Assembly (NCBI GenBank): GCA_965603035.1
Contig: CBFDBL010000002.1
Span: forward strand, 1 to 33,821
DNA from: an uncultured bacterium
Lineage (GTDB): Bacteria; Planctomycetota; PUPC01; DSUN01
Length of the DNA stretch: 33,821 nucleotides
Reading direction: 5' to 3'
Program-made: the position numbers and the translations under genes
Part shown: in pieces, positions 338 through 32,547 of the stretch
Layout: each line of letters starts with the position of its first letter
Numbering within the stretch: position 1 is the stretch's first letter
Notes under the pieces: model-generated
What the model was told of the DNA's origin: nothing
Databases searched by the model: none
Seen by the model: only the letters and a program-made list of their open reading frames with translations

Positions 338-349
338 GCGGAGCCGTGC

Positions 350-487: not shown

Positions 488-519
488 CGGCTCGTCGCGT
501 CGCTTTCTCGAGGCACGCC

Positions 520-5000: not shown

Positions 5001-8000
5001 CCGTGAGGACGCTGCTGTAGACGTGCACGTCGTCGATCTGGCCGTCGAAGCGGTTGTCGTTGTCGCGGCGCCACGCCATGGTGAAGTAGTCGGTGGTGTT
5101 CAAGCCCGACCTGGCCTCAGAGCCGACGAGCATCCCGTCGTAGTACCACGCGATGTTGGTTCCGTCGTACGTGGCTGCCGCGTGATGCCAGCTCGAGGTC
5201 TCCAGATCGGCAAGCGGCCGCTCCCAGTTGTAGACGTGGATGCCGGCATCGTTGTTGTTGATCACATCGATGCCGAAGAAGAGGTCGCCGCCGCTGGAGG
5301 CGCTGTAGAAGCCGAAGATGCCCTTCCAGTCGCTCGGCGGGTCGGCGGAATCGGACTTGAACCAGCCGGCGATGGAGCGGGGCGCGGCGCCGCTGACGCC
5401 GACGCTGCCGACGTCCACCTGGCCGTCGTTGCCGTCGAAGTCGAAGGCGGTCCCGATCGCGCCCGGCACGCCGAGGGTGACACCGCCGGAGATGGTTCCG
5501 GGGTTCGCAGTCTGGGTGTCGAACGCGGTCGTGCCGCTCGTCTCGTCGAAGGTCCAGTGGGAGATCAGCCCGGTGGTCGGCCCAGGGGCCGGCGGGGCGA
5601 CGGTGTCGCCGAACGACGCGGTGCCGCCGGCGAGGTGGAGGTCGGTGGAGCCGCCGAGGGGATCGGGCGCGTCGGCCGTGAGAAGGCCCTGGCGGACTTC
5701 GAAGGTGGTGCCCGCGCCGTTGATCGTGTGGGCGACGTTATCGACGATCATCGTGCCGGGGCCGTCCTTGATGAGGGTCTTGCCGCTGCCGCCGACGTAG
5801 TCGCCGATGTCCACGGTGTTCTGCACGTCGAGGGTGCCCGAGCCGCCGGCCAGCACCGTCTCGGTGAACGTGGTCGGCGCGCCCATGGTGGACAGGACGA
5901 CCCCGTCATCCAGGGTCAGCTGTCCCACCGTGGCCTCCAGCGGGTACACGATGTTCAGCGTCGAGTTCGCTGTCCCGTGGACGGTCAGGTCCGTCAAGTC
6001 CAAGTCACCCGCGAAGATCTTCGTGGTGAAGGGCCCCGCAAAGGTGTACCGGGCCGTCGGTGTCGGGTAGTCGGCCCCGGCGATGCTATCCACGAGGGTC
6101 CAATTGGCGTTGTCGTTGCTGCCCTCGAAGGTCCATCGCACGGGGTCGCGCTCGGTGGCGTCGTTGGCCGTGGCCCAGTTGTACTCGTCGATGGTGACCG
6201 CAGAGCCGAAGTCCAGGACCAGCGGGGCCTTGTTGAAGTCGAGCCATTTGGTGCCCGTGTTGTTGTCCACGGCCTTTTCCGGCCCCTCCGCGTCGGGGGT
6301 GCTGCCCCCTGGATTGGTCGCCGTGGCGCCGGGGATTTGCAGGGTGCCGTAGAAGACCTGCATCTCGGAAAGCTGCACGCTGTTGGCTGCGCCGTCGTCG
6401 CGCAGCTTGGTGGGCGTGAATCGGAAGTACTGGTAGGTCGCGTCGGCCGGCGTGGCCGGCGGCTCGATGGTGAGCGTGCCGCCGGCCAGCTCGGCGTGCG
6501 TGGGCCCGTCGAACGGGTCGGCGCCGATGGCGTGCAGCGTGCCCTGCTCCACCCGCCAGGTCGTGTCGGCGGCGACGATCGTGTGCGCGTCGCTGTCCAC
6601 CACCAGCTCGCCGCTGCCGCGCTTGATGAACGTCTTGGGGGCGCCGCCGTCGCCGTAGTCGCCGATGTCCACCGTGTTCTGCACGTCGAGGGTGCCGGAG
6701 GCGGCGCCGATGGCCGTGCTGGCGAAGGTCATCGCGCTACCCGTGGTCGTCAGGGTGGCGTCGTTGTTGACGGTCAGGTCGGCGAAGGCGAGCGGGGAGG
6801 TGCTCCGGGACTCGAGGGTCGAGTTGGCCGTGACGAGCACGTTGATGTTGGAGGTGTCGGGAGCGATCCTGGCGCCGTACATGGCCTCCACGTCGTCCGC
6901 CGTGAGGACGCTGCTGTAGACGTGCACGTCGTCGATCTGGCCGTCGAAGCGGTTGTCGTTGTCGCGGCGCCACGCCATGGTGAAGTAGTCGGTGGTGTTC
7001 AAGCCCGACCTGGCCTCAGAGCCGACGAGCATCCCGTCGTAGTACCACGCGATGTTGGTTCCGTCGTACGTGGCTGCCGCGTGATGCCAGCTCGAGGTCT
7101 CCAGATCGGCAAGCGGCCGCTCCCAGTTGTAGACGTGGATGCCGGCATCGTTGTTGTTGATCACATCGACGCCGAAGAAGAGGTCGCCGGTGCTGCTGTC
7201 GTCGTAGAAGCCGAAGATGCCCCGCCAGTCGCTCGGCGGATCGGCGGAATCGGACTTGAACCACCCGGCGATGCTTCTCGGGGCGGCGCCACTGATGCCG
7301 ACGCTCCCGACGTCCACCTGGCCGCTGCTGCCGTCGAAGTCGAATGCGGTCCCGACCGGCCCTGGCACGCCGAGGGTCACGCCGCCGGAGATGGTGCCGG
7401 CGTTCGCACCCTGGGTGTCCGCCGCGGTCGTGCCGCTCGTCTCGTCGAAGGTCCAGTGGGAGATCAGCCCGGCCGTCGGCCCGGGGGCGGGCGGGGCGGA
7501 GCCATCGCCGAAGGCCGCGGTGCCCCCAGCGAGGGTGAGCTTGGTCGAGTCGCCGAGCGGGTCGGCGCCGATGGCAAGCAGGGTGCCGGCGTCCACCTGG
7601 AACGTGGTGTTGGTGGCGCCGCCGGCGCTCAGCGTGTCGAGGGTGAGCTGCCCGTCGCCCTGCTTGGTCACCGTGCCGGCGGCCGTGTCCTGGGCGTCAA
7701 GCACCGTGACCTGCGCCGAGACGGGCACGTTGACGATCGACGTGCCGCCGGCGTTGACGAGCGTGTCGATGGTGGTCGGGCCGCTGCCGACGAAGCTGAT
7801 CGCGTCGCCGTCGTCCAGGGTCAGGGTCGTCGCCGTCAGGGGGCCCGTGTTGTTGAGCGTCGTGCTGCCCGCGACCTTGGCCGCGCCGAGCCCCGTGCTC
7901 GTGCCCTGCGCCATCAGGGTGCTGCCGTTGCCGAGGGTGGAGCTCCCGAAGGTCACCGGCCCGCCGATGGTGGTGAGGTCCGAGCCGGGGGTCATGTCCA

Positions 8001-10095
8001 GCGTGCCGAGGGCCCACGTTTGGGTGGTGGCGATATTGAGGGTCGAGCCGGAGGCTTCGGCAGTGATCGTGACGCCGCTCAGGTCGCCCATGTCGGTCGT
8101 CGCCTCAGACGTCCAGAGATTGGCCTGGGCGGGGTCGGAGGGGTCGACGAAGTCCAGGGAGCCGTAGGCGACACCCGCGCCCTGGCCGAACTTGGCCTCC
8201 ATGCTGGCGTTGACGGCGCCCTCATACCACCCGATGTAGACCTCGTGGGCGCCCGCGCCTAGAGTCACGGTCGCTGTGGCTTCGGTGCGCCCCTGGTAGG
8301 CGTTGTTGTCCACCACGAGCTGGCCGTCCACCCACCACACGCTGCCGTCGTCGCTGGCGGTGCCGAGGGTGATCTCGCCGGGAGCGAGGGGCGAGCCGCC
8401 GACGCCGACGAGCATCGTGCCCGACCACACGGCGCCGAAGTTGTTGGGGTCCTGATTGCGGATGGGAGGATCGGCGGTGCCGCCGGTGCGATCGTACCAA
8501 TCGTCAGGCGTCCCGTTAGCGGGGTCGCCCTGATCGAGGTCGAGGTAGGTGTGCCTGGTCAACGCCGTCATTCGGGCGCTGCCGACACTGTACAAGTCTT
8601 CATAGACCGGCGCCTGGGCGAGGTAGCCCTTGCTCGGCTCGAGGGGGTCGATCAGCGCCTCGCCGTCGCCGGAGTAGTAGGCCTCGAGCAGATCGTTGGC
8701 GGTGCCGCCGGCCGAGACGCCGGGCTCGAGGGTGAGCATGCCGCCGCGCAGGGTCACGTCGGTGGCACCGGCCAGGGGGTTGGCGCCGCGGAGGTAGAGC
8801 TCGCCCTGCTCGACAACGATGTCCGTGAGCGCGAGGTTGCTCAGGCCGGCGCTGTTGTCGCAGCCGAGGGTGCCTGCACCCGTCTTCGTCAGGCTGGCGG
8901 CCCCCGCGTTCACGATGGCGCCGGCGCCCAGGAGGCCGGTGTTGACCTTGACCTCAGTGTCGCCCGCGATGACGAGAGCCGTGACCAGGCCCTGGCCGAC
9001 CTCGAGGCTGGAGCCGTCCTCGAGCACCACGGGCGCGCCCGACAGGAGGTTCGCCGTACCGCCCACCTTGAGCGAGCCGCCAGCCACCGTCACGGCGGCG
9101 CCGCCTGAGGTCTCGAACGTGGTGGCGACCTCCAGGGTCTTGCCGGCGCCGATGACGAGGTTGCCGCCGTTGTGCTCGAGAGCGAGGGCGCCCCGGTCGT
9201 CGGCGACGGTGACGTGGCCGTCATTGATGGCGGCCGCCTCGTTGACCGTCGGGAAGGGGGGCGGCGACGACGCCGAGCAGACCCAGTTCGAGTCGCCCCA
9301 GTTGCCGGTGAACTGGGTGCCGTGGTCCCAGGTGAGCACGGGCGGGAGGGCATCGAGCGGGCTGTTGCCATCGGCGAGGAACTGGATCTGCGTGCCGTCG
9401 AGTGCCTCGTTCCAGATGGCGACGTCGTCGATCCGGCCGTCGAAGCCGCGGTTCTCACTATACCGCGCCTCGTTGTGCCCAATCCAGAGCGCATGCGTCG
9501 GGGTGCCGATGGGGCCGGCGTAACTGGGCTGGTTGGGCTCGGGCTGGCCGTCGGTGGCGTCGATGTAGGTTCGGATCGTGCCGTCGCTCTGGTCCCAGGT
9601 GAACGCGACGTGGTGCCACGCGTCCTGGGTGGGGGCGGGGTTGTCGCTCATGGTCTGGCCGGAATCTTGCAGCTCGACCCGAATGGCGTCGGGGTTGGGG
9701 TTGCGGCACCAGAACATGGAGAAGCCGGGGTCGCTCCATCCGCCGCCTTGGCACACGATGTGGCCGTCGTTCTCCGTGCTGTAGACCCAGGCCGAGACGG
9801 TGACCGCGCTCTGGATGTTCGGCCACGGCGCAGGCTCTGTTGCGGCCAGCCAGGAATCGCCGTCGTAGGAGAACGCTCTGTCGCCGGCGAGGCCAGTGCG
9901 GCCGCCGCCGTCGGCCGTCAGCGTCGCGTTGCCGCTGATCAAGAGGGAGCCAACCAGCGGCTCCACCACGTCCGGGGTGTAGCCGGGGATGCTGTCCACC
10001 ACGTCGGTGTCCATGGGCCAGTAGGCGATCAGGTCGGCCGAGGCCGAGGCGGCGAGCACCAGACCCAGAGCCGCAGCGAACGCCAGCTTCCTCAT
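2032..10095 (-). CDS. Giant secreted PEP-CTERM surface protein (2,687 aa): LamG-type jelly-roll modules, autotransporter-associated beta-strand repeats, PA14-like and F5/8 type C-like modules
   Basis: Track ORF 2032..10167. Start moved to ATG 10095 (GGAGAG 5 nt upstream), which gives the signal peptide MRKLAFAAALGLVLAASASA. Five LamG/concanavalin-type modules end in the typical signature (GRIDDVAIWNEAL; GQIDDVHVYSSVL twice; LDDIYIYDRAL; GDIAELLIFNRAL). Gly/Thr/Ala-rich beta-strand repeat runs are present (e.g. TKTGAGTL, FIKRGSGELVVD, LIKDGPGTMIVD). The C terminus is IPEPTTMALLGLGAVALLRRRRRQA. Confidence 0.93.
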   Translation of the reverse strand: MRKLAFAAALGLVLAASASADLIAYWPMDTDVVDSIPGYTPDVVEPLVGSLLISGNATLTADGGGRTGLAGDRAFSYDGDSWLAATEPAPWPNIQSAVTVSAWVYSTENDGHIVCQGGGWSDPGFSMFWCRNPNPDAIRVELQDSGQTMSDNPAPTQDAWHHVAFTWDQSDGTIRTYIDATDGQPEPNQPSYAGPIGTPTHALWIGHNEARYSENRGFDGRIDDVAIWNEALDGTQIQFLADGNSPLDALPPVLTWDHGTQFTGNWGDSNWVCSASSPPPFPTVNEAAAINDGHVTVADDRGALALEHNGGNLVIGAGKTLEVATTFETSGGAAVTVAGGSLKVGGTANLLSGAPVVLEDGSSLEVGQGLVTALVIAGDTEVKVNTGLLGAGAIVNAGAASLTKTGAGTLGCDNSAGLSNLALTDIVVEQGELYLRGANPLAGATDVTLRGGMLTLEPGVSAGGTANDLLEAYYSGDGEALIDPLEPSKGYLAQAPVYEDLYSVGSARMTALTRHTYLDLDQGDPANGTPDDWYDRTGGTADPPIRNQDPNNFGAVWSGTMLVGVGGSPLAPGEITLGTASDDGSVWWVDGQLVVDNNAYQGRTEATATVTLGAGAHEVYIGWYEGAVNASMEAKFGQGAGVAYGSLDFVDPSDPAQANLWTSEATTDMGDLSGVTITAEASGSTLNIATTQTWALGTLDMTPGSDLTTIGGPVTFGSSTLGNGSTLMAQGTSTGLGAAKVAGSTTLNNTGPLTATTLTLDDGDAISFVGSGPTTIDTLVNAGGTSIVNVPVSAQVTVLDAQDTAAGTVTKQGDGQLTLDTLSAGGATNTTFQVDAGTLLAIGADPLGDSTKLTLAGGTAAFGDGSAPPAPGPTAGLISHWTFDETSGTTAADTQGANAGTISGGVTLGVPGPVGTAFDFDGSSGQVDVGSVGISGAAPRSIAGWFKSDSADPPSDWRGIFGFYDDSSTGDLFFGVDVINNNDAGIHVYNWERPLADLETSSWHHAAATYDGTNIAWYYDGMLVGSEARSGLNTTDYFTMAWRRDNDNRFDGQIDDVHVYSSVLTADDVEAMYGARIAPDTSNINVLVTANSTLESRSTSPLAFADLTVNNDATLTTTGSAMTFASTAIGAASGTLDVQNTVDIGDYGDGGAPKTFIKRGSGELVVDSDAHTIVAADTTWRVEQGTLHAIGADPFDGPTHAELAGGTLTIEPPATPADATYQYFRFTPTKLRDDGAANSVQLSEMQVFYGTLQIPGATATNPGGSTPDAEGPEKAVDNNTGTKWLDFNKAPLVLDFGSAVTIDEYNWATANDATERDPVRWTFEGSNDNANWTLVDSIAGADYPTPTARYTFAGPFTTKIFAGDLDLTDLTVHGTANSTLNIVYPLEATVGQLTLDDGVVLSTMGAPTTFTETVLAGGSGTLDVQNTVDIGDYVGGSGKTLIKDGPGTMIVDNVAHTINGAGTTFEVRQGLLTADAPDPLGGSTDLHLAGGTASFGDTVAPPAPGPTTGLISHWTFDETSGTTAFDTQTANPGTISGGVTLGVPGAIGTAFDFDGNDGQVDVGSVGVSGAAPRSIAGWFKSDSADPPSDWKGIFGFYSASSGGDLFFGIDVINNNDAGIHVYNWERPLADLETSSWHHAAATYDGTNIAWYYDGMLVGSEARSGLNTTDYFTMAWRRDNDNRFDGQIDDVHVYSSVLTADDVETMYGARIAPDTSNINVLVSANSTLESRSASQLDFADLTLNDNTELTVAGGPMSFANAIVNGTAAINSDQHVTLRDYDDGAGANRTLIKRGSGPMDLPDGGPTSGASTTFQVEGGSLNAGGATDPLSGGDLVMAGGTVNLTAPKTAGVIPTGAVGAWTFDAGDADDSSGNGYHGTQNGGAFSSDVPEGLSGQSINLTGNGSINVDDGAGQTVFDLDTLTVAAWVKGWPDNGWDPYISKRGESNQGWQFRRIGWGDSDDKLTMTLRGTSGDDDVIGASNIIQQNPDEWFHIVATYDNATGIRRWYINGVLDGEVLESGDISNTGSQLVFGARDNSGDAGNPPSIGNHSNTWLDDIYIYDRALIEADIQAMLPQRGPLVMPDTNVRVAGGGTLNAVTDKTATFGDLTLQSGALTIAGAREGVFFAGGAVDSSADSIGLDAAVDVTVSGSYDGQNATASFTKSGGANLILTQGTTNHGGVAVDVQGGRLISNAAMQAAGLNIGGGANVDTGTNDVTISDGGAFRAGALKISGAGSTFKVGGDDMAAAPERLGLEGGTVTVRVGAMPGGLAVWLDASDVDGQGNGAIGDPTDGQTVATWADRSGNGNSAAQGNANRQPVYIASAINGQPALRFNADNVEGDDEMKLGDLSAQFPDAATLFAVAYIDSDGRYNVFGNRNNDERWKADTWSEAVPGSFRGGRQGYNFDDLPSDGSHIFAIESNSSVWRMLVDSSNLGDRGADYHSGSGQDWAIADRSNGGQELKGDIAELLIFNRALSATEMGKIGGYLAAKYGIGAAGWTGNIDPMAINMPDTDIHVASSTELFSDTPSTATYGNLNLGGTPGVALTLTGAPGGTFFESIGFDIEGFTPGTEHDQMIFQGPGHPIATGSELDILTPLIFGQDDVCNWAVLMDIEDPLVFADGIFTDARTGLPLPEGASFIDGNGAYFWQISYQYEGNDVAIHLTGIPEPTTMALLGLGAVALLRRRRRQA
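2035..2109 (-). other. PEP-CTERM sorting signal (C-terminal 25 aa of the giant protein)
   Basis: IPEP motif, then the hydrophobic helix TTMALLGLGAVALL, then the basic tail RRRRRQA at the extreme C terminus. This is the canonical PEP-CTERM/exosortase substrate layout. Confidence 0.8.
4871..5640 (-). repeat. Intragenic duplication, copy B (LamG module plus flanks)
   Basis: Aligns with 6770..7539 at a constant offset of 1,899 bp (633 codons, in frame). By eye, 4921-5290 versus 6820-7189 differ at only 3 positions (4932, 4986, 5271). The flanks are clearly more diverged. Confidence 0.9.
6085..6440 (-). other. F5/8 type C (discoidin)-like module inside the giant protein (approximate bounds)
   Basis: Translation YQYFRFTPTKLRDDGAANSVQLSEMQVFYG..KAVDNNTGTKWLDFNKAPLVLDFGSAVTIDEYNWATANDATERDPVRWTFEGSNDNANWTLVDS. 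The pattern A.D....TKW ... R.P..W.(L/F)(E/Q)GS.D...W is typical of discoidin carbohydrate-binding modules. Confidence 0.55.
6770..7539 (-). repeat. Intragenic duplication, copy A (LamG module plus flanks)
   Basis: Partner of 4871..5640. Both encode GLISHWTFDETSGTTA..APRSIAGWFKSDSADPPSDW..DAGIHVYNWERPLADLETSSWHHAAATYDGTNIAWYYDGMLVGSEARSGLNTTDYFTMAWRRDNDNRFDGQIDDVHVYSSVLTADDVE. Confidence 0.9.
8170..8460 (-). other. PA14-like module inside the giant protein (approximate bounds)
   Basis: Translation NFGAVWSGTMLVGVGGSPLAPGEITLGTASDDGSVWWVDGQLVVDNNAYQGRTEATATVTLGAGAHEVYIGWYEGAVNASMEAKFG. It matches the PA14 pattern (F....G.....G.Y.F....DDG..L.(I/V)DG..V(I/V)DN.........L.AG.....I.Y.E..G.A...L.W). 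Confidence 0.5.
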
Positions 10096-10354
10096 CGGGA
10101 CTCTCCTAGAGAAGACAGGATGCTTCGAATCGCGTGATAGGTTCTGCGTCAACGTCACACGGCGCAACGCTCAGGAGAAACGGGAGAGAACAATCCCACT
10201 CCCCATGAGCAGTCTGCTGTAATGCAAATCCCATGCCGCTGGAGCCGCCGTGGTGTACGAGAATCGGAATTGCCGTAAACACAAGCCTCACATAGGCTTA
10301 ACGATACGCCCGCGCTCGGCCCGCGCGCGCCCTTCCTCCGCGATTTCGGACGCC

Positions 10355-10592: not shown

Positions 10593-12107
10593 ATGGACCG
10601 CCCCAATATCCTCATGATCATGGCCGACCAGCTCCCCGCCGCCGCGCTCGGCTGCTACGGGCACGGCGTGGTGCGGAGCCCCCACATCGACCGCCTCGCC
10701 GCCGAGGGCGTCGCCTTCGACCAGTGCCTGTGCAACAGCCCGCTGTGCGCGCCCTCGCGCGCCTCGATGGTCACGGGGCTCCTGCCCTGGCGCACCGGCG
10801 TCTTCGACAACGGCTGCGAGCTGCCCGCCCAGATCCCCACCTTCATGCACCACCTGCGCCGAGCCGGCTACCGCACCCTCCTCTCGGGCAAGATGCACTT
10901 CGTCGGGCCCGACCAGCTCCACGGCTTCGACGAGCGCCTCACCACCGACATCTATCCCTCCTTCTTCCACTGGACCCCCAACTGGCGCAAGGGCGTCTAC
11001 CCCAACCCCGGCACCAGCGTCGCACAGCTCAAGGACGCCGGCCGCTGCCGCTGGAGCCTACAGCTCGACTACGACGAGGAGGTCCACTTCCGCGCCCTCG
11101 AGCGCCTGCGGGCCCTCGCGCGCGACCGCTCCGACCGCCGCCCCTTCCTCCTGTGCGCCTCCTACACCCACCCTCACGACCCGTTCATCATCACCCAGGA
11201 CTACTGGGACCTCTACGACCCCCATGCCGTCGAGCTGCCGGCCGCGCGGCCCCAGCCCATGGCCAGGATGCACGCCTTCAACCGCTGGCTCCAGGTCCAC
11301 CACGAGCTCGATCGCTACCCGCCGTCCGACGAGCTGGTCCGCCGCGCCCGGCGCGCCTACTACGCCATGGTCAGCTACGTGGACGACAAGGTGGGGGAGC
11401 TGGTCGGCGAGGTCCGGCGGCTGGGCCTGGGCGGCAGGACCGTCGTCGTGGTGACCGGCGACCACGGCGAGATGCTCGGCGAGCACGGCATGTGGTTCAA
11501 GCGCACGTTCTACGACGGGTCGGCGCGCGTGCCGCTGGTGTGGTCGTGGCCAGGCCGCTGGCGCGGCGGGCGGCGCGTGGGCGAGGCCGTGTCGCTCGCC
11601 GACCTGTTCCCCACGCTGCTCGACCTGGCCGAGCTGCCCGACCGCGGCAGCGTCGGCCGCGAGGTGGACGGGCAGAGCCTCCTGCCCCTCCTCCGAGGCG
11701 AGACGCCCGGCGCCCCGCGCAGCGCCGTCACCGAGTACTACGGCGAGGGCGTCATCCACCCCCTGCGCATGATCTGCCGCGACAAGTGGAAGTACGTCCA
11801 CGTCCACACACAGCCACCGCTGCTCTTCGACCGCGAGGCCGACCCCACCGAGCAGACCAGCCTCGCAGGCCGCCCCGACGTCGCCGACGTCGAGCACGCC
11901 CTGCGCGACGAGCTGCTCGCAGGCTGGGACCCCGAGGCCATGGAGACCCGCGTCCTCGCCAGCCAGCGCGACCGCAGGCACATCCTCGAGGCCATGGCCC
12001 ACGGCCAGCCCGTCGCGTGGGACCACCAGCCCGTCTTCGACGCCGCCCGCCGCTACGTCCGCGCCCGTGACGCCCAGCACACCAACGGCGAGCGACGACT
12101 CGACTGA
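10593..12107 (+). CDS. betC: Choline-sulfatase-like sulfatase (formylglycine type, Cys)
   Basis: 504 aa; GGAG 5 nt before the ATG. The N terminus RPNILMIMADQL, the sulfatase signature SPLCAPSRASMVTG (C-x-P-x-R) and the block LLSGKMHFVGPDQLHGFDERLTTDIYP are what I recall as diagnostic of the BetC choline-sulfatase family. Also TGDHGEMLGEHGMWFK. The symbol comes from motif memory only. Confidence 0.88.
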   Translation: MDRPNILMIMADQLPAAALGCYGHGVVRSPHIDRLAAEGVAFDQCLCNSPLCAPSRASMVTGLLPWRTGVFDNGCELPAQIPTFMHHLRRAGYRTLLSGKMHFVGPDQLHGFDERLTTDIYPSFFHWTPNWRKGVYPNPGTSVAQLKDAGRCRWSLQLDYDEEVHFRALERLRALARDRSDRRPFLLCASYTHPHDPFIITQDYWDLYDPHAVELPAARPQPMARMHAFNRWLQVHHELDRYPPSDELVRRARRAYYAMVSYVDDKVGELVGEVRRLGLGGRTVVVVTGDHGEMLGEHGMWFKRTFYDGSARVPLVWSWPGRWRGGRRVGEAVSLADLFPTLLDLAELPDRGSVGREVDGQSLLPLLRGETPGAPRSAVTEYYGEGVIHPLRMICRDKWKYVHVHTQPPLLFDREADPTEQTSLAGRPDVADVEHALRDELLAGWDPEAMETRVLASQRDRRHILEAMAHGQPVAWDHQPVFDAARRYVRARDAQHTNGERRLD

Positions 12108-12214
12108 CCCACCCACCTCGACGAGAGCGACGGGGAGGCCGAGGGGCCCCGATACAGCCGCTCGAGCTTCCTCGTGGCGCGCGGCAACGGCGGGAACCGA
12201 CGCAGAGCGTGGGC

Positions 12215-12243
12215 TTGACAGGGCGAGGGTGCCGCCGTAGGAT
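12215..12243 (+). promoter_or_regulatory. Candidate sigma70-type promoter of the cytidylyltransferase / TagF-like pair
   Basis: TTGACA (12215-12220), a 17-nt spacer, then TAGGAT (12238-12243), about 50 nt before the start codon. Confidence 0.45.
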
Positions 12244-12292
12244 AGCAGCGGAGCGCGCAGGGCTGGACGGGCGCGAGCGGGGAGTGGGCGTC

Positions 12293-13042
12293 TTGGAAGC
12301 ATTGATCCTGGCAGCGGGGCGCGGCGATCGCATGGGGGCTCTGACCGCCCGCCTGCCGAAGTGCATGCTCGAGGCGGGCGGGGCCTCGCTCATCCACCGA
12401 CAGCTCGATGCGCTGCGGTCGCACGGCGTGGCGGACGTGACGGTGGTCGTCGGGTTCGGTGCCGAGGCGCTCGCCGAGCACCTGGGGCCGGGGGTCCGGA
12501 CCGTGGTGAACCCGCGGCACGCCGAGACGAACAGCCTCTACTCGTTCTGGCTGGGTGTGCAGCGGGTGCGGGGCGAGATGCTGGTGCTGAACGCCGACGT
12601 GCTGTTCCACCCGGAGTTGCTCGGGCGTCTGCTGGCCTGTGGGCATCCCGACGTGCTGCTCGCGGACCTGTGCGACGGGCTCGGGGCGGAGGAGATGAAG
12701 GTGCGGGTGGTGGACGGCTGGCTCGCCGACATCGCTCGGGACCTGGCGCCCGGGAGCTACGACGGGGAGAACGTGGGGGTCCTGCGGTTCAGCGACGGGG
12801 CTCGCCGCGAGCTGACGGCGATCGCCGAGCGCCTGGTGGCGTCGGGGTGCGAGCGGGCGATGTTCCCGCTGGCGACGCGTCACCTGCTCGCCGAGCGGCC
12901 GGTGCGTGTGCTGGCGACGGCCGGGCAGCCGTGGATCGAGATCGACTTCCCCGAGGACCTGGCGCGTGCGGAGCGGGAGGTGGTGCCGCGGCTGCCCGCT
13001 CTGGCCGAGGGGCTCGCGCAGCGAGGAGCGGCAGGCAGGTGA
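12293..13042 (+). CDS. Nucleotidyltransferase, LicC-like (phospho-alcohol/sugar-phosphate cytidylyltransferase family)
   Basis: In frame with track ORF 12209..13042. EALILAAGRGDRMG..LPKCML is the N-terminal nucleotide-binding signature. VVNPRHAETNSLYSFWL, LVLNADVLF and WIEIDFPEDLARAE parallel the LicC layout (N..Y...N..YS..L / DAD..F / EID...D). Start at TTG 12293 (GGGGAG 8 nt upstream); GTG 12284 is an alternative. The substrate cannot be read from sequence. Confidence 0.78.
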   Translation: MEALILAAGRGDRMGALTARLPKCMLEAGGASLIHRQLDALRSHGVADVTVVVGFGAEALAEHLGPGVRTVVNPRHAETNSLYSFWLGVQRVRGEMLVLNADVLFHPELLGRLLACGHPDVLLADLCDGLGAEEMKVRVVDGWLADIARDLAPGSYDGENVGVLRFSDGARRELTAIAERLVASGCERAMFPLATRHLLAERPVRVLATAGQPWIEIDFPEDLARAEREVVPRLPALAEGLAQRGAAGR

Positions 13043-14109
13043 GGAGGGGCGGCGACAGGCGGGTCATCGGGTTCCGCGCGAAGCGGCCGATGAACTACCT
13101 GATCTTCGCGCCCGTGCACCGGCGGCTGGCGGCGGACCCGCGGTTGAGGGTGTACTTCTTCGGGACGCGCTACGGCGGCGGCTCGGTGCGGCGGCTCTAC
13201 GAGCGGGCGGGTGCGGGCGACGTGCGGCTCCTGGCGCGGGCGGTCGCGCGGTACTATCCCTTCGATCTGTACGTGAGCTCGGACTTCAGCGTGGCGGCTC
13301 GGCGCGCGGCCCGCGCGGCGCACCTGTTCCACGGCCTGTCGTTCAAGAACTACGCGCTGTCGGCCGAGGCCTGCCGCTACGACGCGCTGTGCGTGGTCGG
13401 GCCGTACATGGAGCGTGGGTTCGTGCGCCGGGGGCTGTTCGCCGAGGGGGATCCCCGGCTGCGGCGGGTGGGCATGCCGAAGCTCGATTGCCTGCTCGAC
13501 GGCTCGCTCGACCGGCGGGCGATCCTCGAGGGGCTGGGCTGCCGCGCGGACCGGCCGACGGTGCTCTACGCGCCGACGTGGGGGCCGGAGTCCAGCCTGC
13601 CGGTCATGGGCGAGCGGGTCCTCCGCGGCCTGTGCGGCGCGGGGGTGAACGTGGTGGTGAAGCTGCACGACAACTCGTACGACCGGCGCGAGACCTCGGT
13701 GGACTGGTCGGCGCGTCTGGCGGCGCTGGCCCACGCCGACCTCGCGGTCGCGCGCTCCCACGACGTCGTGCCGCTGCTCTTCGCGGCCGACGTGCTGCTC
13801 ACCGACGCGAGCTCGGCCGCCTACGAGTTCCTGCTGCTCGACCGGCCCATCGTCTTCCTCGCCTTCCCGGGGCAGCTCGACCGCGTGCGCGAGCGCGCCG
13901 ACCTGGCGACCTGGGGCAGGCGCGTGGGCATCACCGTCGAGGAGCCGGGCCGCGTCGCCGCCGCGGTCGAGGACGCGCTCGCCAGCCCGCGCGAGCACGC
14001 CGCCGTCCGCCAGGCCGCCGTCCGCGACCTGTTCTTTCACCCCGGCCGCGCCACCGACCGCGCGGTCGCCGAGCTCTACCGACTGCTCGAGCTCGACCCG
14101 CCGGCCTGA
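13039..14109 (+). CDS. CDP-glycerol glycerophosphotransferase (TagF/TagB) family protein
   Basis: In-frame tail of track ORF 12361..14109. PTVLYAPTWGPES, VNVVVKLHDNSYD and VPLLFAADVLLTDASSAAYEFLLLDRPIVFL match the Glyphos_transf pattern (ILYAPTWR / KLHP / D.LITDYSS...(D/E)F..L.(K/R)PI.F). Start at GTG 13039 overlaps the upstream TGA (GTGA), with GAGGAG 10 nt upstream; ATG 13090 is an alternative. Confidence 0.78.
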   Translation: MRRGGDRRVIGFRAKRPMNYLIFAPVHRRLAADPRLRVYFFGTRYGGGSVRRLYERAGAGDVRLLARAVARYYPFDLYVSSDFSVAARRAARAAHLFHGLSFKNYALSAEACRYDALCVVGPYMERGFVRRGLFAEGDPRLRRVGMPKLDCLLDGSLDRRAILEGLGCRADRPTVLYAPTWGPESSLPVMGERVLRGLCGAGVNVVVKLHDNSYDRRETSVDWSARLAALAHADLAVARSHDVVPLLFAADVLLTDASSAAYEFLLLDRPIVFLAFPGQLDRVRERADLATWGRRVGITVEEPGRVAAAVEDALASPREHAAVRQAAVRDLFFHPGRATDRAVAELYRLLELDPPA

Positions 14110-15926
14110 GCCCACCACGCCGCGACCTCGCGGTCCACGAACGCCTCGGCGATGAACTCGAGGCTGACGAGGACGCCGAGGGCGCGGCGGCGGTTGGCCT
14201 CGCCTCGCCGATGCTCGTGCCAGAGCGCCCACATCGCGTCGGCCTCGACGAGGCCGCGGTCGGCCAGCCGGGTGAGCTGCTCGACGCACATCGCCTGGAA
14301 CGGCCCTGCCTCGCGCAGCAGCAGCGTCAGGTCCTGGCCGATGACGCGCCCGCGGCGCACCCGCTCCTCCTCGGCGCTGTGGAGCGGCAGCCGCCCGCCC
14401 GACCAGCGCTCGACGCGCTTGCGAGCCGACCGCGCCGCCCTCCGGCCGACGCGCGCCAGCCACCCCTCGAGCAGCGGACGCCCGTTCTCGTTGCGATTCG
14501 GCAGGGCGAACAGCCGCGGGAACCGACGGACCAGCATCCGACGATACAGCCGCTGGCCCGCCAGCCAGCGCATCGGCACGGCGAGCAGGAAGTCGAACAC
14601 GGCGTTGTCGAGGAAGGGCGAGAGGTAGCGGAACCGTTCCCGCACCTTGTGCACGAGCATGGTCGTGTAGGGCTGGAGCCTGGCGCCGAGGAACCAGGCG
14701 AGGGCGTAGGCGCCGACCCGCCGATGGTCGTTGCCCTCGTTGACCCGCGCCATGAGATCGACGGCCAGCTCGTCCCAGGCCTCGGGCCGCATGCCGCAGA
14801 GGCGGCCGACGACGTCGGACGGGATGCCCTGGTGGTGCTGCCGCACGAGCTCGAGTGCCGCGCGCTCGTCGGCGGGGCAGGGGTCCAGCGCGCGCGGGTG
14901 CACGACCATGCTGGTGATGCCGTCGCCGGCGAAGCCCGTGATGACGTGCTCGGAGAGATCGGCGAGCGCGTGCCAGTCGCTGAGGAAGCTCCAGAGCACG
15001 TCGGCGAGGCCGTCGCTGTCGCGCGCCTTGCGCAGGTACTCCGCCGCGTGGTCGTGGGGCGTCGAGAGGTCGATCGCCCGATGACGCACCCCCGCCGCCC
15101 GTGCGACCTGGCGGCCGATCTCGAAGTCGAAGGAGCCCGGCGTCCCGTACGTCACGGCCACCAGACGGTCGGCCGGCACGCACTCGAGCGCGGCGCCCAG
15201 CACGGCCCGCGAGTCGAGCCCGCCGCTCAGCGGCAGCAGCACGCGCCCCTTGCCCCGCAGACGCCGCTCGACCGCCGGCACCCACAGCGCGGCCAGCTCG
15301 CGCGCCGCCGCGTCGGGATCGTCCAGGTCGTCGCGGCGCTCGTCGAAGCGATAGCGCCAGTAGCGGCGGACCGTCTCTCCCGCCGCGTCGGCCTCCAGCG
15401 CGCTGCCGTGCGGCAGCAGCCGCACCCCGTCCGTCACCGTCCGATGGTCGAACAGCCAGCGGAAGGCGACCATCTCGGCCACCATCTCGCCGTCGAGCCG
15501 GGCCGGGAACCCGAGAGCGAGGAAGTCGCTCACGTGCGGGAAGAAGCACAGGCGGCCGTCCCGCGCGCCGTAGAAGCAGGGATACTGGCCGTGGCGGTCG
15601 GCGATCAGCCGCAGACGCCGCGCCCGCGCGTCGAAGGCCGTGATGTGGAACGAGCCGTTGAGGTCGGGCAGACGCTCGAGCCAGTCGGGCGCGGCGAGCA
15701 GCTCGTGCAGCGACGTCAGGTCGTCGCCCGAGCCGTCGGAGGCGGGCCAGACGTCCTGGACGTTGTAGATCTCGCCGAACAGGTAGAGGACCGAGTCGCC
15801 GCGGTGGCTCAGGGTCCCGCCGATGCAGCCTGGCCGCTCGAGCAGCACCAGGCCCGGACGCTGGTAGACGGCTCGGAAGCCGTCGGGGGCCGTCACCTCG
15901 CCTGTGGGATTGAAGATGCCGTACAC
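14076..15926 (-). CDS. Asparagine-synthetase-fold (PP-loop ATP pyrophosphatase) protein with Tyr in place of the glutaminase nucleophile Cys, paralog 1
   Basis: 616 aa. GTG start at 15926 with GAGGA 7 nt upstream. The N terminus is (M)YGIF, not MCGI. FGEIYNVQDV corresponds to the AsnB NGEIYN block. PP-loop LLPLSGGLDSRAVLGA. It lies 10 nt downstream of paralog 2, and its 3' end overlaps the TagF-like gene by 34 bp (convergent). Confidence 0.88.
   Translation of the reverse strand: MYGIFNPTGEVTAPDGFRAVYQRPGLVLLERPGCIGGTLSHRGDSVLYLFGEIYNVQDVWPASDGSGDDLTSLHELLAAPDWLERLPDLNGSFHITAFDARARRLRLIADRHGQYPCFYGARDGRLCFFPHVSDFLALGFPARLDGEMVAEMVAFRWLFDHRTVTDGVRLLPHGSALEADAAGETVRRYWRYRFDERRDDLDDPDAAARELAALWVPAVERRLRGKGRVLLPLSGGLDSRAVLGAALECVPADRLVAVTYGTPGSFDFEIGRQVARAAGVRHRAIDLSTPHDHAAEYLRKARDSDGLADVLWSFLSDWHALADLSEHVITGFAGDGITSMVVHPRALDPCPADERAALELVRQHHQGIPSDVVGRLCGMRPEAWDELAVDLMARVNEGNDHRRVGAYALAWFLGARLQPYTTMLVHKVRERFRYLSPFLDNAVFDFLLAVPMRWLAGQRLYRRMLVRRFPRLFALPNRNENGRPLLEGWLARVGRRAARSARKRVERWSGGRLPLHSAEEERVRRGRVIGQDLTLLLREAGPFQAMCVEQLTRLADRGLVEADAMWALWHEHRRGEANRRRALGVLVSLEFIAEAFVDREVAAWWAQAGGSSSSSR
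14146..14303 (-). repeat. 158-bp tract identical between the two AsnB-like paralogs (copy in paralog 1)
   Basis: By eye, 14146-14303 equals 15977-16134 base for base. The tract encodes FQAMCVEQLTRLADRGLVEADAMWALWHEHRRGEANRRRALGVLVSLEFIAE. The rest of the two genes is far more diverged. Confidence 0.9.
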
Positions 15927-15936
15927 GCGGCCGTCC

Positions 15937-17757
15937 TCACTGGGTTGCGGCCGGCCTCTCGCCGTCGAGGAAGGCTTCGGCGATGAACTCGAGGCTGACG
16001 AGGACGCCGAGGGCGCGGCGGCGGTTGGCCTCGCCTCGCCGATGCTCGTGCCAGAGCGCCCACATCGCGTCGGCCTCGACGAGGCCGCGGTCGGCCAGCC
16101 GGGTGAGCTGCTCGACGCACATCGCCTGGAACGGGCCTTCGACCCGCATCAGCGCCTCGTCGTCCATCCGCAGCACCCGGCCGCGCCGCCGCTTCTCACG
16201 TATGTCCCGATACGCGGGAATGAGGCCGCACGTGCCGTCCTCGACGATGCGCCGCACCGACCACGACAGGCGCTCCCACGTGCGCGACGGCCAGCTATCG
16301 AGCAACGGCCGACCGCCCAGACGCGCCGACGGAAGGCGGAAGAGACCCGGGAACCGACCGGCCAGCATCCGCCGGTAGAGCCGCTGGCCCACTCGCCACC
16401 CCAACGGCACCTGCATCGCCAGATCCACGTAGGCGTTGTCGAGGAACGGCAGCAGGTAGTTGAACCGCTCGCGGAGCAGGAAGGTCTGCTCCATGGTGAA
16501 CTTGATTTGGCGGTTCGGGAAGTCCCAGCACTTGACGTAGTTGGCGTTGAGGCGGTGGGGGTTCTCGCCGTTGGTCGCGACGACGACGTCGAGCGCCCGC
16601 TCCTCGGTCTGGGCGGGGTCGAGGCGGAGGAGCCGCGCCGTGATGTCGAAGGGCACCCACTGGCGCATGGCCAGGCCGGCGCGCAGCGCCTCGCGCTCGT
16701 CGGCGTGCCGCTCGGCCGTCGGGTGATCGGGCAGGAGCTGGCCGGAGAGGCAATCGCCCATGAAGCCGAGCAGCGCGTGGGGCGAGACGTCCAGCAGCGT
16801 CTCCCACTCGCTGGGGAAGGTGCGGACCACCTCGACTTGGCCGTCGGTGTCGATGGCCCGGCGGCGGAACTCGCGGCGGTAGTCCGTCGGCTGGCTCAAG
16901 TCGATCGTGCGGTGGGCCACCCCCGCGGCGGCGGCCACCTGGCAGCCGAGATCGAAGTCCAGCGAGCCCGGCGTCCCGTAGGTCACGGCCACGAGGTCGT
17001 CGGCACGCCTGCACTCGAGCAGCGCGCCGAGCAGCGCGCGGGAGTCGAAGCCGCCGCTGATCGGGCACACCAGCCGCTGCTTGCCCCGCACGCGGCGGGC
17101 CACCGAGGCGACGAGCAGATCCGCCATCTCCCGCGCCGTCGCGTCCAGGTCGTCCGGGCCGCCGCCGCTCTCGTCGAACCGCCACGCCCAGTAGCGGCGC
17201 TCGGTCAGCGCGCCGCCCCGAAGCTCCACCACCGTGCCGTAGGGCACGAGGAACACCCCGTCGAGCAGCGTCCTGTCGCCCAGCAGCCACTTGAAGGTGA
17301 GGAACTGGACGAGGAAGTCCTCGTCCAGCCGCGGCGCGAACCCCAGGCCGAGGAAGTGGTGGACGTGGGGGAAGAAGGCCAGGCGGCCGTCGCGGAACGC
17401 GTAGAAGCACTTGCGGCTCCCGTAGCGATCGGCGATCAGCCGCACCCGCCGCGCCGCGGGCTCGACGGCCACGAGGAAGAACGAGCCGTTGAGCCGCGGC
17501 AGCAGGTCGAGCGCGTCGGGGCTCGCGAGCAGCTCGCCGAGCGAGACCAGGTCGTCGCCCGAGCCGTCGGACGCGGGCCAGACGTCCTGCACGTTGTAGA
17601 GCTCGCCGAAGACATAGAGGATCGAGCCATCGCGCTCGGCGAGCCGCCCCTGCTGCGCCTCGGCCCCTCGGAGCAGCGCCACGCCTGGCGCCGAGAAGGC
17701 CGTCGCGAACCCGCGCGGCGCCGACACCTGCCCGCCGAACTCGACGATGCCGTACAC
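15937..17757 (-). CDS. Asparagine-synthetase-fold (PP-loop) protein with Tyr in place of the nucleophile Cys, paralog 2
   Basis: Track ORF 15937..17886. Start moved to GTG 17757, preceded by AGGAGG with a 5-nt spacer, giving (M)YGIVEFGG. FGELYNVQDV block. PP-loop VCPISGGFDSRALLGA. 606 aa. Confidence 0.85.
   Translation of the reverse strand: MYGIVEFGGQVSAPRGFATAFSAPGVALLRGAEAQQGRLAERDGSILYVFGELYNVQDVWPASDGSGDDLVSLGELLASPDALDLLPRLNGSFFLVAVEPAARRVRLIADRYGSRKCFYAFRDGRLAFFPHVHHFLGLGFAPRLDEDFLVQFLTFKWLLGDRTLLDGVFLVPYGTVVELRGGALTERRYWAWRFDESGGGPDDLDATAREMADLLVASVARRVRGKQRLVCPISGGFDSRALLGALLECRRADDLVAVTYGTPGSLDFDLGCQVAAAAGVAHRTIDLSQPTDYRREFRRRAIDTDGQVEVVRTFPSEWETLLDVSPHALLGFMGDCLSGQLLPDHPTAERHADEREALRAGLAMRQWVPFDITARLLRLDPAQTEERALDVVVATNGENPHRLNANYVKCWDFPNRQIKFTMEQTFLLRERFNYLLPFLDNAYVDLAMQVPLGWRVGQRLYRRMLAGRFPGLFRLPSARLGGRPLLDSWPSRTWERLSWSVRRIVEDGTCGLIPAYRDIREKRRRGRVLRMDDEALMRVEGPFQAMCVEQLTRLADRGLVEADAMWALWHEHRRGEANRRRALGVLVSLEFIAEAFLDGERPAATQ
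15977..16134 (-). repeat. 158-bp tract identical between the two AsnB-like paralogs (copy in paralog 2)
   Basis: Partner of 14146-14303, at an offset of 1,831 bp. Confidence 0.9.
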
Positions 17758-17790
17758 GAGAGCCTCCTGGGTGGCGGACGGGAGCCGGAG

Positions 17791-17808
17791 CTCGCCCCGA
17801 AGGGCGAG
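17791..17808 (-). other. Small stem-loop between malQ and the AsnB-like genes
   Basis: On the - strand this reads CTCGCCC-TTCG-GGGCGAG (7-bp stem, TTCG tetraloop). It sits in the 145-bp gap after the malQ stop. No U tract follows, so a terminator role is unproven. Confidence 0.3.
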
Positions 17809-17902
17809 ACTCCGAACAACCTGCCGCGCGTTTGGAGCCCACGCCTTCAGGCGCGAGTTGAGCTGCCGCAGGCCGGATCCCTGCAAGCTGTCCAGATAGC
17901 CC

Positions 17903-22178: not shown

Positions 22179-22609
22179 CAGCCCCCGGCGCGACGCGACC
22201 GGAGCCCTCGATCGCTGCGGTGGGCGCTCAGGCCACTTGGGGTGGAATTGCAGTAACCGTTCAGGTGGTCAGGCCAGGAGGGCGTGTTGCCCAAAGGAGA
22301 CCTGCGGCCCGAACGGCCACGCAAGGTGCTCTTCCTGCTGGAAGAGGCGGGCGATTCCGTCGAGTTTCTGCCCATCCGTGAGATCATGGCCCCCAACTGG
22401 CGTTTGGGCAACACGCCCGGGAGCGCCACCGAGCCGAGCGCCCGCCGCCGTCTCGCGTCACGCCATTTGCGGCAGGGGCAACTGCCGGGGGGCTGCATGC
22501 ACAGCCCCTCGCTGCGAGGGGGAGCCGCAGAATGGCTTGCCCCTCGCGTCGGCGGGCTGGGCGCACACCCTCCGTCGCAGGGAAGAACAGGGCTGGCGCG
22601 CTATCATGT

Positions 22610-22623
22610 CATTTGCGCAAATG
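22610..22623. promoter_or_regulatory. 14-bp perfect palindrome CATTTGCGCAAATG, copy 1
   Basis: The sequence equals its own reverse complement and is AT-rich relative to its surroundings. It sits at the same position in every repeat unit. Confidence 0.5.
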
Positions 22624-22774
22624 CCCAAACCACCGCGAGGGGCGCCGCGCCGCTCTGCCGCCGACCCGGGCAGCGTGGCATGGCTTGCTGGGGCCTCGCG
22701 GCTCGGCACGATGGGGGCGGCGTCCGGCAGACACCTGGCGCCTGGCGAGCCCATGCGGGAGCGCGCTATCATGC

Positions 22775-22788
22775 CATTTGCGCAAATG
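22775..22788. promoter_or_regulatory. 14-bp perfect palindrome CATTTGCGCAAATG, copy 2
   Basis: Identical to copy 1, 165 bp downstream. Confidence 0.5.
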
Positions 22789-22939
22789 CAGGAATACCCG
22801 CGAGGGGCGCCGCGCCACTTTGCCGCCGACTCGGGCGGCGCGGCACAGCTTGCTGTGGCCTCGCGTCTCGGCACGACGGCGGTGGCGTCCCGGCAACACC
22901 TGGCGTCTGGGGAGCCCATGTGGCGGCGCGGTATCATGT

Positions 22940-22953
22940 CATTTGCGCAAATG
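22940..22953. promoter_or_regulatory. 14-bp perfect palindrome CATTTGCGCAAATG, copy 3
   Basis: Identical to copy 1, 330 bp downstream. Confidence 0.5.
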
Positions 22954-23104
22954 CGACGATAACCGCGAGCCGCGCCGCGCCACTTTGCCGCCGACCCGGG
23001 CAGCGTGGCATGGCCTGCTGGGGCCTCCCGGCTGGCCACGAAGGGAGCAGCGCCCTGGAGAGAGCCGGCGTGGGGCGAGTCCGTGTGGCGCTGGGTTATC
23101 ATGC

Positions 23105-23118
23105 CATTTGCGCAAATG
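23105..23118. promoter_or_regulatory. 14-bp perfect palindrome CATTTGCGCAAATG, copy 4
   Basis: Identical to copy 1, 495 bp downstream. It lies about 100 bp upstream of the TTGACA at 23214. Confidence 0.5.
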
Positions 23119-23213
23119 CGGAGCTCACCGCGAGTGGCGCTGCTCCCCCTCGCTGCCGCCCCAGGACTCCCTTCTGTATCGCACGCCCGACTCAGCAGCG
23201 CGGCGATCTGCGC

Positions 23214-23245
23214 TTGACACCCATCCTCTATTCCGCATGTATGGT
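23214..23245 (+). promoter_or_regulatory. Weak candidate promoter of the second sulfatase gene
   Basis: TTGACA at 23214-23219. The best -10 options are TGTATG (23238-23243, 18-nt spacer) or TATGGT (23240-23245, 20-nt spacer, too long). It is listed only because of the perfect -35 hexamer and its position 72 nt before the start codon. Confidence 0.25.
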
Positions 23246-23290
23246 CTGTCGCTTGCTGCTTCATGTCGCCGCCGGAGAGGAGTCCCAGTC

Positions 23291-29578: not shown

Positions 29579-29628
29579 CTGCACCTCTCGGATTCAGAGC
29601 CGTCTGCCAGCACGACGTGCGAGCCCCC

Positions 29629-29656: not shown

Positions 29657-29735
29657 GGACTGCGGGTGGCGGCACGGCGACGAACGGACTATGATGGGTA
29701 GCACTCGCACCATCGTTACCGTCGAGGGCTTGCAC

Positions 29736-32510: not shown

Positions 32511-32547
32511 GCGGCGCACTCCCTTGCTCGCGGATCGGGCAGCCGCC

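Follow-up and report, generated by a model that had tools for sequence, protein, structure and literature searches.

A tandem pair of Cys-less asparagine synthetase-like proteins from an uncultured planctomycete as candidate glutamine-independent amide-forming enzymes

What might a protein with the fold of asparagine synthetase B (AsnB) do when the cysteine nucleophile of its glutaminase domain has been replaced by tyrosine? The question is raised by two adjacent genes in a stretch of 33,821 nucleotides (the window) from an uncultured bacterium of the Planctomycetota (GenBank assembly GCA_965603035.1, contig CBFDBL010000002.1, positions 1 to 33,821). Both genes are on the minus strand. Gene B (15937-17757), the upstream member, encodes 606 amino acids when read from its GTG and begins MYGIV, while gene A (14076-15926), the downstream member, encodes 616 amino acids and begins MYGIF; the two proteins are 54% identical across 600 residues without a gap. 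It is proposed here that A and B work as a pair of carboxylate-amine ligases that need ATP but not glutamine and whose target is an envelope glycan or a precursor of one, a reading drawn from sequence comparison and held with belief and doubt in equal measure. The loss of the glutaminase site, the fold and the membership of the pair in a wider Cys-less subfamily can be stated more firmly and are presented first.

The gene pair, its fold and its active sites

Both genes have recognizable translation signals. Upstream of B (17755-17768, minus strand), a Shine-Dalgarno sequence AGGAGG (17763-17768) is followed by a 5-nt spacer and the GTG codon (17755-17757). At the junction of the two genes (15924-15939, minus strand), the TGA stop codon of B (15937-15939) overlaps the Shine-Dalgarno sequence of A, GAGGA (15934-15938), which is separated by 7 nt from the GTG of A (15924-15926). 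With only 10 nt between the stop of B and the start of A, co-transcription and translational coupling of the two genes are probable. In the block corresponding to the oxyanion hole, A has LFGEIYN and B has VFGELYN, and alignment with E. coli AsnB places a Phe at the oxyanion-hole residue Asn74 in both FGEIYN (15762-15779, minus strand) and FGELYN (17593-17610, minus strand). The PP-loop occupies residues 234-240 of each protein and consists of SGGLDS in A (15207-15227, minus strand) and SGGFDS in B (17038-17058, minus strand), followed in both by the Arg typical of the subfamily described below, to give SGGLDSR and SGGFDSR. An earlier note on this DNA, made from the sequence alone, had called attention to the two GTG starts with these Shine-Dalgarno sequences and spacers, to Tyr as residue 2 in both proteins, to the altered oxyanion blocks and to the intact PP-loops, and each of these is read in the sequence as the note described it.

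Starting translation further upstream does not restore a cysteine. The GTG at 15926 is the first start codon past an in-frame stop, so no upstream start is possible for A. The frame of B is open as far as a TTG at 17886, and the 43 residues that this would add contain no Cys. In one of the close relatives, from an uncultured Planctomycetota metagenome-assembled genome (L019), a stop codon stands immediately before the GTG. The one amendment concerns the mature N-terminus, which the earlier note wrote with the Met in brackets. Methionine aminopeptidase does not cleave before Tyr, so the initiator Met of A and B probably stays in place, and with this Met retained there would be no free alpha-amine on the residue that serves as the N-terminal nucleophile (Ntn) in this fold.

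Residue assignments in the active sites come from a MAFFT sequence alignment and follow the numbering of E. coli AsnB. In the glutaminase domain of A and B, Cys1 is replaced by Tyr and Asn74 by Phe; the HRRLSIxD segment, which bears Arg49, is deleted in the close clade including A and B, and the SDTE motif, which bears Asp98, is absent from both. With Cys1, Arg49, Asn74 and Asp98 all gone, the glutaminase site has been lost at four places, beyond the nucleophile, and A and B are judged from this alignment to be glutaminase-dead and unable to use glutamine. The synthetase domain keeps SGGxDS, which is invariant in an alignment of 32 sequences, and it keeps the equivalent of Asp351 (D335). The position of Glu348 is occupied by Phe, in a motif that reads GFAGD/GFMGD; the position of the catalytic Tyr of beta-lactam synthetase (BLS) is likewise Phe in A and B and is Tyr, Trp, Leu or His in relatives; and W-D-x-x-N-R-Q is found instead of the KVDR motif (Asp384/Arg387).

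Both proteins have a Pfam Asn_synthase match and a weak GATase_7 match. The AlphaFold2 models are confident (pLDDT 93.1 and pTM 0.92 for A, pLDDT 92.5 and pTM 0.92 for B), and in both the first beta-strand begins at residue 2. When the model of A was compared with the PDB by Foldseek, the matches were TsnB9, BLS, E. coli AsnB, carbapenam synthetase (CarA) and human asparagine synthetase (ASNS), with E-values from 1e-18 to 1e-12 (entries at E<=1e-12: 1ct9, 6gq3, 1jgt, 1q15 and 7ylz). Identities to these structures are 14-19%; the TM-score is 0.64 for TsnB9 and about 0.45-0.50 for BLS, E. coli AsnB, CarA and human ASNS. Sequence searches of the PDB agree with this picture. Five NCBIfam models were considered as possible homes for the pair, and all were rejected because every score is far under the cut-off: TIGR01536 (AsnB) gives 75.9 bits for A and 66.0 for B against a cut-off of 267.1, the lasso cyclase model NF033535 gives 51.3 and 21.6 against 525, the macrolactam cyclase model NF033561 gives 50 and 48 against 300, TIGR03108 gives 48.5 and 33.8 against 816.9, and TIGR03104 gives 39.5 and 48.6 against 570. 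A and B are predicted, then, to have the two-domain AsnB fold, and they are claimed by no characterised clade.

Tyr2 is shared with a group of close homologues. Those with 45-62% identity (P0002, P0004-P0007, three tandem copies at the locus L001, and L019) all begin (M/V)YG[VA]F, and further copies in L001, L009 and L019 likewise start (M/V)YG. In an alignment of six full-length proteins of this close clade (46-55% identity), Y2 is an invariant column. Starts of the form MYG also occur in the distant relatives P0121, P0123, P0124, P0129, P0131 and P0142. Scans for the Tyr2 clade found a single locus among genomes, in a Planctomycetota metagenome-assembled genome, and four loci among metagenomes, three of which were already known. 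The clade also has a loop, VQDVWPASDGSGDD, that comes right behind the FGEIYN block (residues 56-69 in each protein; 15720-15761 and 17551-17592, minus strand). This acidic, Gly-rich loop within the dead glutaminase domain is near-invariant in the close Tyr2 clade and is not found in wider relatives, so that it is clade-specific; the DNA of A and B is 82% identical across the region.

The pair has a history of its own. In a neighbour-joining tree the proteins fall into two lineages (bootstrap values of 70-86%): an A-type lineage consisting of A (winA), L009_2, P0002, L001_2 and L001_3, and a B-type lineage consisting of B (winB), L009_1 and L001_1, which L002 joins more weakly (50%). The ortholog of B in L009 is 72% identical to it. 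The gene order, B-type then A-type, is common to the window, L009 and L001, which suggests that the duplication is older than these three organisms and has been kept since. A pair kept in this way is consistent, as far as the sequences go, with divided labour or a heterodimer, and because the PP-loop and the other motifs are kept in both lineages, neither member looks like a dead partner. The pair is not obligatory, since L002 and L019 are single-copy; copy number in close relatives is either one (L002, L019) or three (L001 and the array of L009-L011). Overall, A and B appear from their sequences to be intact and under selection. Their 3' ends have been homogenized recently by gene conversion: a tract of 196 nt on the minus strand is 94% identical between A (14127-14322) and B (15958-16153) and includes a perfect run of 158 nt (14146-14303 = 15977-16134), while the remaining DNA of the two genes is 45-80% identical. 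As a consequence the two proteins end in an identical stretch of ~60 residues, which form C-terminal helices. The tract is not common to the orthologous pair in L009.

The wider Cys-less subfamily and its genomic context

When 1.84 billion cluster representatives (clusters at 50% identity) were searched with a profile, 2634 of them scored E<1e-30, a count that probably includes some true AsnBs. The best 149 representatives (E<1e-60), of which 97 are full-length, were examined further. None of the 149 has an MCG start. Of the full-length proteins, 48 have Pro as residue 2 and 10 each have Tyr or Ala; Ser, Phe, Val and others account for the remainder. The PP-loop is followed by Arg (SGGxDSR) in 138 of the 149 and in 92 of the 97, but in none of the 71 Cys2-bearing AsnBs retrieved, where Ser, Thr, Gly or Ala occupies this position. 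The subfamily is defined in this analysis by three features: Cys2 is lacking, the PP-loop has the form SGGxDS-R, and the AsnB motifs Glu348, KVDR and Lys449 have been lost. Its own conserved motifs, TxGxPGxxD(Y/F)ExG, G(F/Y)xGD, NRQ and PFLD, are all present in A and B. Short forms with the synthetase domain only account for 27 of the 149, and their existence points to the synthetase domain as the functional core.

These sequence features place the A/B pair in a Cys-less subfamily, large and ancient, that spans Bacteria and Archaea and of which it represents the Tyr2 branch. This changes how the pair is to be seen. The Cys-less state noticed in the earlier note has proved real, but the pair is no isolated oddity and the uniqueness of Tyr2 was overstated, Tyr2 being only one flavour of residue 2 in the subfamily. 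The same note had raised the prospects that the Tyr variants might be confined to this DNA and decaying, or that the proteins might sit firmly inside a characterised clade. Neither is borne out: the survey that it suggested finds Tyr2 conserved in the close clade and recurring in further relatives, the NCBIfam scores assign the pair to no known family, and the structure predictions that it also suggested gave confident AsnB folds for both paralogues. A search of the literature on Cys-less AsnB homologues in polysaccharide loci found no described member of the subfamily. What is new is the subfamily itself, together with the SGGxDS-R signature, the lost Glu348, KVDR and Lys449 motifs, the variable residue 2 and the presence of its wider members in glycan clusters.

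Apart from the Tyr2 branch, about half of the full-length members start Met-Pro-Gly (for example, P0014 and P0016). Removal of this Met would expose an N-terminal Pro on an Ntn-hydrolase fold. Enzymes of the tautomerase superfamily use a catalytic Pro1, and in the present subfamily Pro1 could be catalytic or merely structural.

The informative loci of the wider subfamily members, ten of ten, bacterial and archaeal, are found among genes for glycan assembly. P0009 has Wzm/Wzt, sugar epimerases, PGA_cap and two GT4 genes as its neighbours; P0011 is in an array of GT2 and GT4 genes; P0010 is accompanied by a methyltransferase and a Wzx flippase; P0014 and P0016 are each in a cluster rich in glycosyltransferases; P0121 and P0123 each have a GT4 gene directly downstream; and P0129 overlaps the 3' end of wzt. 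Two members in cultured organisms were found by tblastn against plasmids. In Sulfitobacter indolifex, plasmid pDSM14862_a (L027 10435-13068) carries a 427-amino acid short form (WP_243254475) directly downstream of tviB in an exopolysaccharide (EPS) cluster. This protein consists of the synthetase domain only and yet has all the motifs, and the locus is notable because tviB encodes a UDP-GlcNAc 6-dehydrogenase, which makes a uronic acid. A tblastn follow-up with the Sulfitobacter protein as query matched only itself. In Haloferax volcanii DS2, plasmid pHV4 (L028 8719-10560) carries a full-length, Cys-less member (HVO_RS02750, WP_004043124) that starts MTGFVGG and has the PP-loop LSGGLDSR; its neighbours are a GT2 gene and one for a flippase-like "lipopolysaccharide biosynthesis protein". 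The Haloferax gene also lies about 3 kb upstream of a type I-B CRISPR-Cas operon.

Proposed function and competing explanations

For a carboxylate-amine ligase pair, the reaction may be pictured as follows. The C-terminal synthetase domain would bind ATP at the PP-loop and adenylate a carboxylate, and the acyl-adenylate would then be attacked by an amine other than glutamine-released ammonia to form an amide, whether that amine is free NH3, an amino acid or one of another kind. Having lost catalysis, the N-terminal Ntn-like domain would have a binding or structural role. The most likely substrate would be a carboxylate on a cell-surface glycan or on a nucleotide- or lipid-linked precursor, for example a uronic acid. 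As old paralogues, B and A may cooperate as a heterodimer, or they may act at two different sites or steps.

Such chemistry, in which a carboxylate is adenylated and an amine of non-glutamine origin then attacks, is well precedented among AsnB homologues, by PdmN, by other asparagine synthetase (AS)-like enzymes and by BLS, CarA and the lasso cyclases. The reaction type itself has its nearest parallel in TIGR03108, the family of XrtA/PEP-CTERM-associated AsnB-type amidotransferases, which keep the Cys1 nucleophile. Like A and B, the enzymes WbpS, WbqG and PGN_1234 of this family have the two-domain AsnB fold and a PP-loop, and they are encoded in surface-glycan clusters. Gene deletion has shown that these homologues convert uronic acids of glycans to uronamides, and they are canonical glutamine-hydrolysing AsnB-type amidotransferases (PMC7468200). 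The WbpS/WbqG reaction, from sugar carboxylate to amide, is the type proposed for A and B; unlike these enzymes, however, A and B have Tyr2, lack Asn74, Arg49 and Asp98, and have Arg rather than Ser/Thr after the PP-loop.

PdmN couples a polyketide acid with D-Ala or D-Ser, and a non-Cys N-terminus correlates with ligase activity in AsnB homologues (bioRxiv 10.1101/2025.10.30.685158). Amino-acid ligases of this type were missing from the list of known Cys-less homologues in the earlier note. A and B resemble PdmN, and the proposed enzymes Tln4 and TlnF, in being AsnB homologues with a residue other than Cys at the N-terminus, and in PdmN-type enzymes it is an amino acid, instead of NH3 from glutamine, that is coupled to a carboxylate at the expense of ATP. 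Their descriptions set them apart: PdmN-type ligases have an N-terminal Ser/Ala, belong to type II polyketide synthase (PKS) clusters and act on aromatic polyketide acids, whereas A and B have Tyr and relatives in glycan clusters. In other AS-like enzymes the nucleophile is hydroxylamine or hydrazine, or the reaction proceeds onward to a nitrile. TsnB9 (PDB 7ylz), a hydroxyamidotransferase that transfers hydroxylamine in a polyketide hydroxamate pathway, is the best match among solved structures (E 1.4e-9 by sequence and 3e-18 with a profile, in addition to its TM-score), although its identity is 16-18% and its PP-loop reads SGGLDSS.

Intramolecular amides are the products of BLS, CarA and lasso cyclases. 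BLS and CarA share with A and B the Cys-less AsnB fold and adenylate a carboxylate while their N-domain is catalytically inert. Their motifs GYGAD/GYGSD, like GFAGD/GFMGD in A and B, have an aromatic residue at the AsnB Glu348 position. Their query-normalised Foldseek TM-scores to A are 0.45-0.49, but identity is just 14-19%, and they differ from the pair in making an intramolecular lactam, in being encoded in clavam or carbapenem clusters and in having Ser, rather than Arg, after the PP-loop. Lasso-peptide and macrolactam cyclases are also Cys-less AsnB homologues and form amides by adenylation. From the archaea, AglU of Methanococcus maripaludis reportedly attaches threonine to a uronic acid; no claim is drawn from it.

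Beside the pair in the window is a candidate partner module. A TagF-like gene of the CDP-alditol phosphotransferase family (13039-14109, plus strand; Pfam Glyphos_transf, E 2e-16) is convergent with A, and the 3' ends of the two genes overlap by 34 nt (14076-14109); the same 34-nt overlap is present in L010. The TagF-like gene is preceded by one for a MobA-like NTP-transferase of the sugar- or alditol-phosphate nucleotidylyltransferase family (12209-13042, plus strand; Pfam NTP_transf_3, E 2e-17, with only generic NCBIfam matches), and the stop of the latter overlaps the start of the former as ATGA (13039-13042), indicating translational coupling of the two. The TagF-like gene is a candidate functional partner of A and B, the function of the pair is possibly tied to the module, and the substrate in this organism may be connected with the phospho-alditol that the module would handle.

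Several observations weigh against the ligase proposal or against its link to glycans. Glu348 is replaced by Phe, Lys429 is deleted, and the position of Lys449 (KxGF) is Arg in A, Ala in B and unconserved in relatives, so that residues which AsnB and BLS cannot do without have no conserved equivalent here; adenylation may therefore be impaired or follow other chemistry. Next to the pair, the window has neither a glycosyltransferase nor a UDP-sugar dehydrogenase gene. The TagF-like gene, being convergent with the pair, is not co-transcribed with it, and only a fairly close relative, represented by L009-L011, has the arrangement of the window, with a TagF-like gene (72-75% identical) that is convergent with the AsnB-like array and overlaps its end by 34 nt. 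The contexts of the closest relatives differ from this. L001 has a URO-D-like gene upstream, the three tandem copies, FMN_bind and 4Fe-4S proteins, a 708-amino acid unknown protein and GH130; L002 is the same apart from lacking the extra copies; and L019 has sulfatase and GH2 genes. Finally, within the array of L009-L011 (L009 1-5187, L010 and L011) about 115 internal residues are missing from the A-type copy, the third copy is a remnant, and 8 residues of the conserved motif GQRLYRRM are missing from the B-type copy (P0008). These deletions hint either at dispensability or decay of the array or at repeat-driven misassembly, which are indistinguishable because the assemblies are of low coverage and probably not independent.

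A more specific version of the carboxylate-amine ligase proposal combines the pair with its subfamily and is put forward tentatively, as something more likely wrong than right. According to this version, the SGGxDS-R subfamily would consist of general glycan carboxylate-amine ligases that form amino-acid or amine amides, or glutamine-independent uronamides, on the uronic acids of O-antigens, capsules, EPS and archaeal glycans, and the B/A heterodimer and the NTP-transferase and TagF-like genes would decorate an envelope polymer with a phospho-alditol or phospho-glycerate that bears an amide.

Among the alternatives, the substrate could be a soluble small molecule or cofactor-like metabolite, with A and B as an ATP-dependent amide or lactam synthetase in a planctomycete pathway. 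This is considered unlikely, although several neighbouring genes fit it: the AsnB-like genes in L001 and L002 follow a gene of the URO-D family, those in L001 precede the FMN_bind and 4Fe-4S genes, and no glycosyltransferase is found there. The window has an EFR1-family protein with a 4Fe-4S ferredoxin domain (34-1599, plus strand), and the best Foldseek matches, TsnB9, BLS and CarA, are natural-product enzymes. However, the window has no gene in common with L001, L002 or L019 except the AsnB-like genes, and the informative loci of the wider subfamily are without exception glycan clusters. The EFR1-type protein itself showed no similarity by tblastn, at E<=1e-5, to the Fe-S protein of L001 (FMN_bind/4Fe-4S region, L001 9688-12643).

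A second alternative is that A and B are non-catalytic pseudoenzymes, scaffolds or regulators that have the AsnB fold without adenylation. The missing or unconserved equivalents of Lys449, Lys429, Glu348 and the KVDR motif could be explained in this way, as could the large internal deletions in the L009-L011 copies and the presence of Gly at the Asp351 position in some subfamily members. Yet SGGxDS does not vary among the 32 aligned sequences, the Arg that follows is retained at the frequency given above (138/149), the motifs TxGxPGxxDxExG, GFMGD, NRQ and PFLD are strongly conserved, and it is the synthetase domain alone that the short forms retain, all of which makes loss of catalysis improbable.

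A third alternative, that the pair are peptide or intramolecular cyclases, or AS-like enzymes that modify the C-terminus of a peptide (lasso, BLS, CarA or TsrC type), has little probability. Cyclases are Cys-less too, A and B do have weak matches to the NCBIfam lasso and macrolactam cyclase models, BLS and CarA are among the Foldseek matches, and AS-like enzymes are known with varied nucleophiles. The scores are nevertheless 51 against 525 bits for lasso and 50 against 300 for macrolactam cyclases, and the neighbours of the homologues are glycan genes. The earlier note saw no lasso-type or beta-lactam genes near the pair, and none of these partner genes occurs in the window. Unlike a lasso cyclase system, the window has no gene for a precursor peptide, a leader peptidase (B-type protease) or an RRE (a recognition element for RiPPs, peptides made by the ribosome and modified after translation). 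A RiPP or lasso precursor was sought in the sole intergenic gap (17758-17902) and was rejected, as the gap has no independent coding-strand open reading frame (ORF) and the window has no protease or RRE domains; clavam, carbapenem and PKS cluster genes are also absent from the window.

The last alternative, that these are ordinary glutamine-dependent asparagine synthetases with a missed start that would supply Cys, has next to no probability despite the name "asparagine synthase (glutamine-hydrolysing)" that automatic pipelines give to relatives, because it is already refuted by the start codons of A, B and L019, and Asn74, Arg49 and Asp98 are lost as well and the TIGR01536 scores are 76 and 66 against 267.

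Remaining features of the window and the meaning of the subfamily

The other genes pointed out around the pair in the earlier note, namely malQ upstream of the pair, the NTP-transferase and TagF-like genes that converge on it and a giant PEP-CTERM protein, are all present. The last is a secreted protein of 2711 amino acids (2032-10167, minus strand) with five LamG-like domains, PA14, F5/8 type C and a C-terminal PEP-CTERM signal, about 4 kb from the pair. The suggested connection of A and B with exosortase/PEP-CTERM systems amounts to this proximity: the window ORFs that were scanned include no exosortase gene, and both proteins score far too low for TIGR03108 (48.5 and 33.8 bits against 816.9). 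Of the overall reading offered in that note, the parts that stand are the dead glutaminase, the AsnB fold, the intact PP-loop and a probable role in amide formation; the exosortase link is not supported.

Other features of the window are recorded for completeness. The G+C content is high. Three sulfatase genes occur within the 34 kb (10593-12107, plus strand; 22532-24652, plus strand; 31137-32792, minus strand). Taken with the PEP-CTERM protein, the G+C content and the one genome match to a Planctomycetota metagenome-assembled genome, these genes point to the window being of planctomycete-like origin. A large protein of 1252 to 1744 amino acids, depending on the choice of start, is encoded at 25826-29584 (minus strand), with a borderline DUF6259 match as its sole match, and adjoining it is a gene for a ferric-reductase-like membrane flavoprotein (29691-31103, plus strand); both are unrelated to the pair.

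For the window itself, the finding is a modest extension, that of a conserved paralogous pair in an uncultured organism. For the family it would reach further. The database label of these proteins names a reaction that members of the subfamily, judged by their sequences, cannot perform, and recognition of the subfamily would correct a widespread misannotation with a simple diagnostic, the absence of Cys2 together with SGGxDS-R. To our knowledge, the enzymes for amide decorations on the uronic acids of glycans are mostly unassigned. The subfamily would supply candidates for such decorations of surface polysaccharides, which bear on charge, antigenicity and recognition by phages and the immune system, and because it has members in Sulfitobacter indolifex and Haloferax volcanii, which are cultured and tractable, the hypothesis is directly testable.

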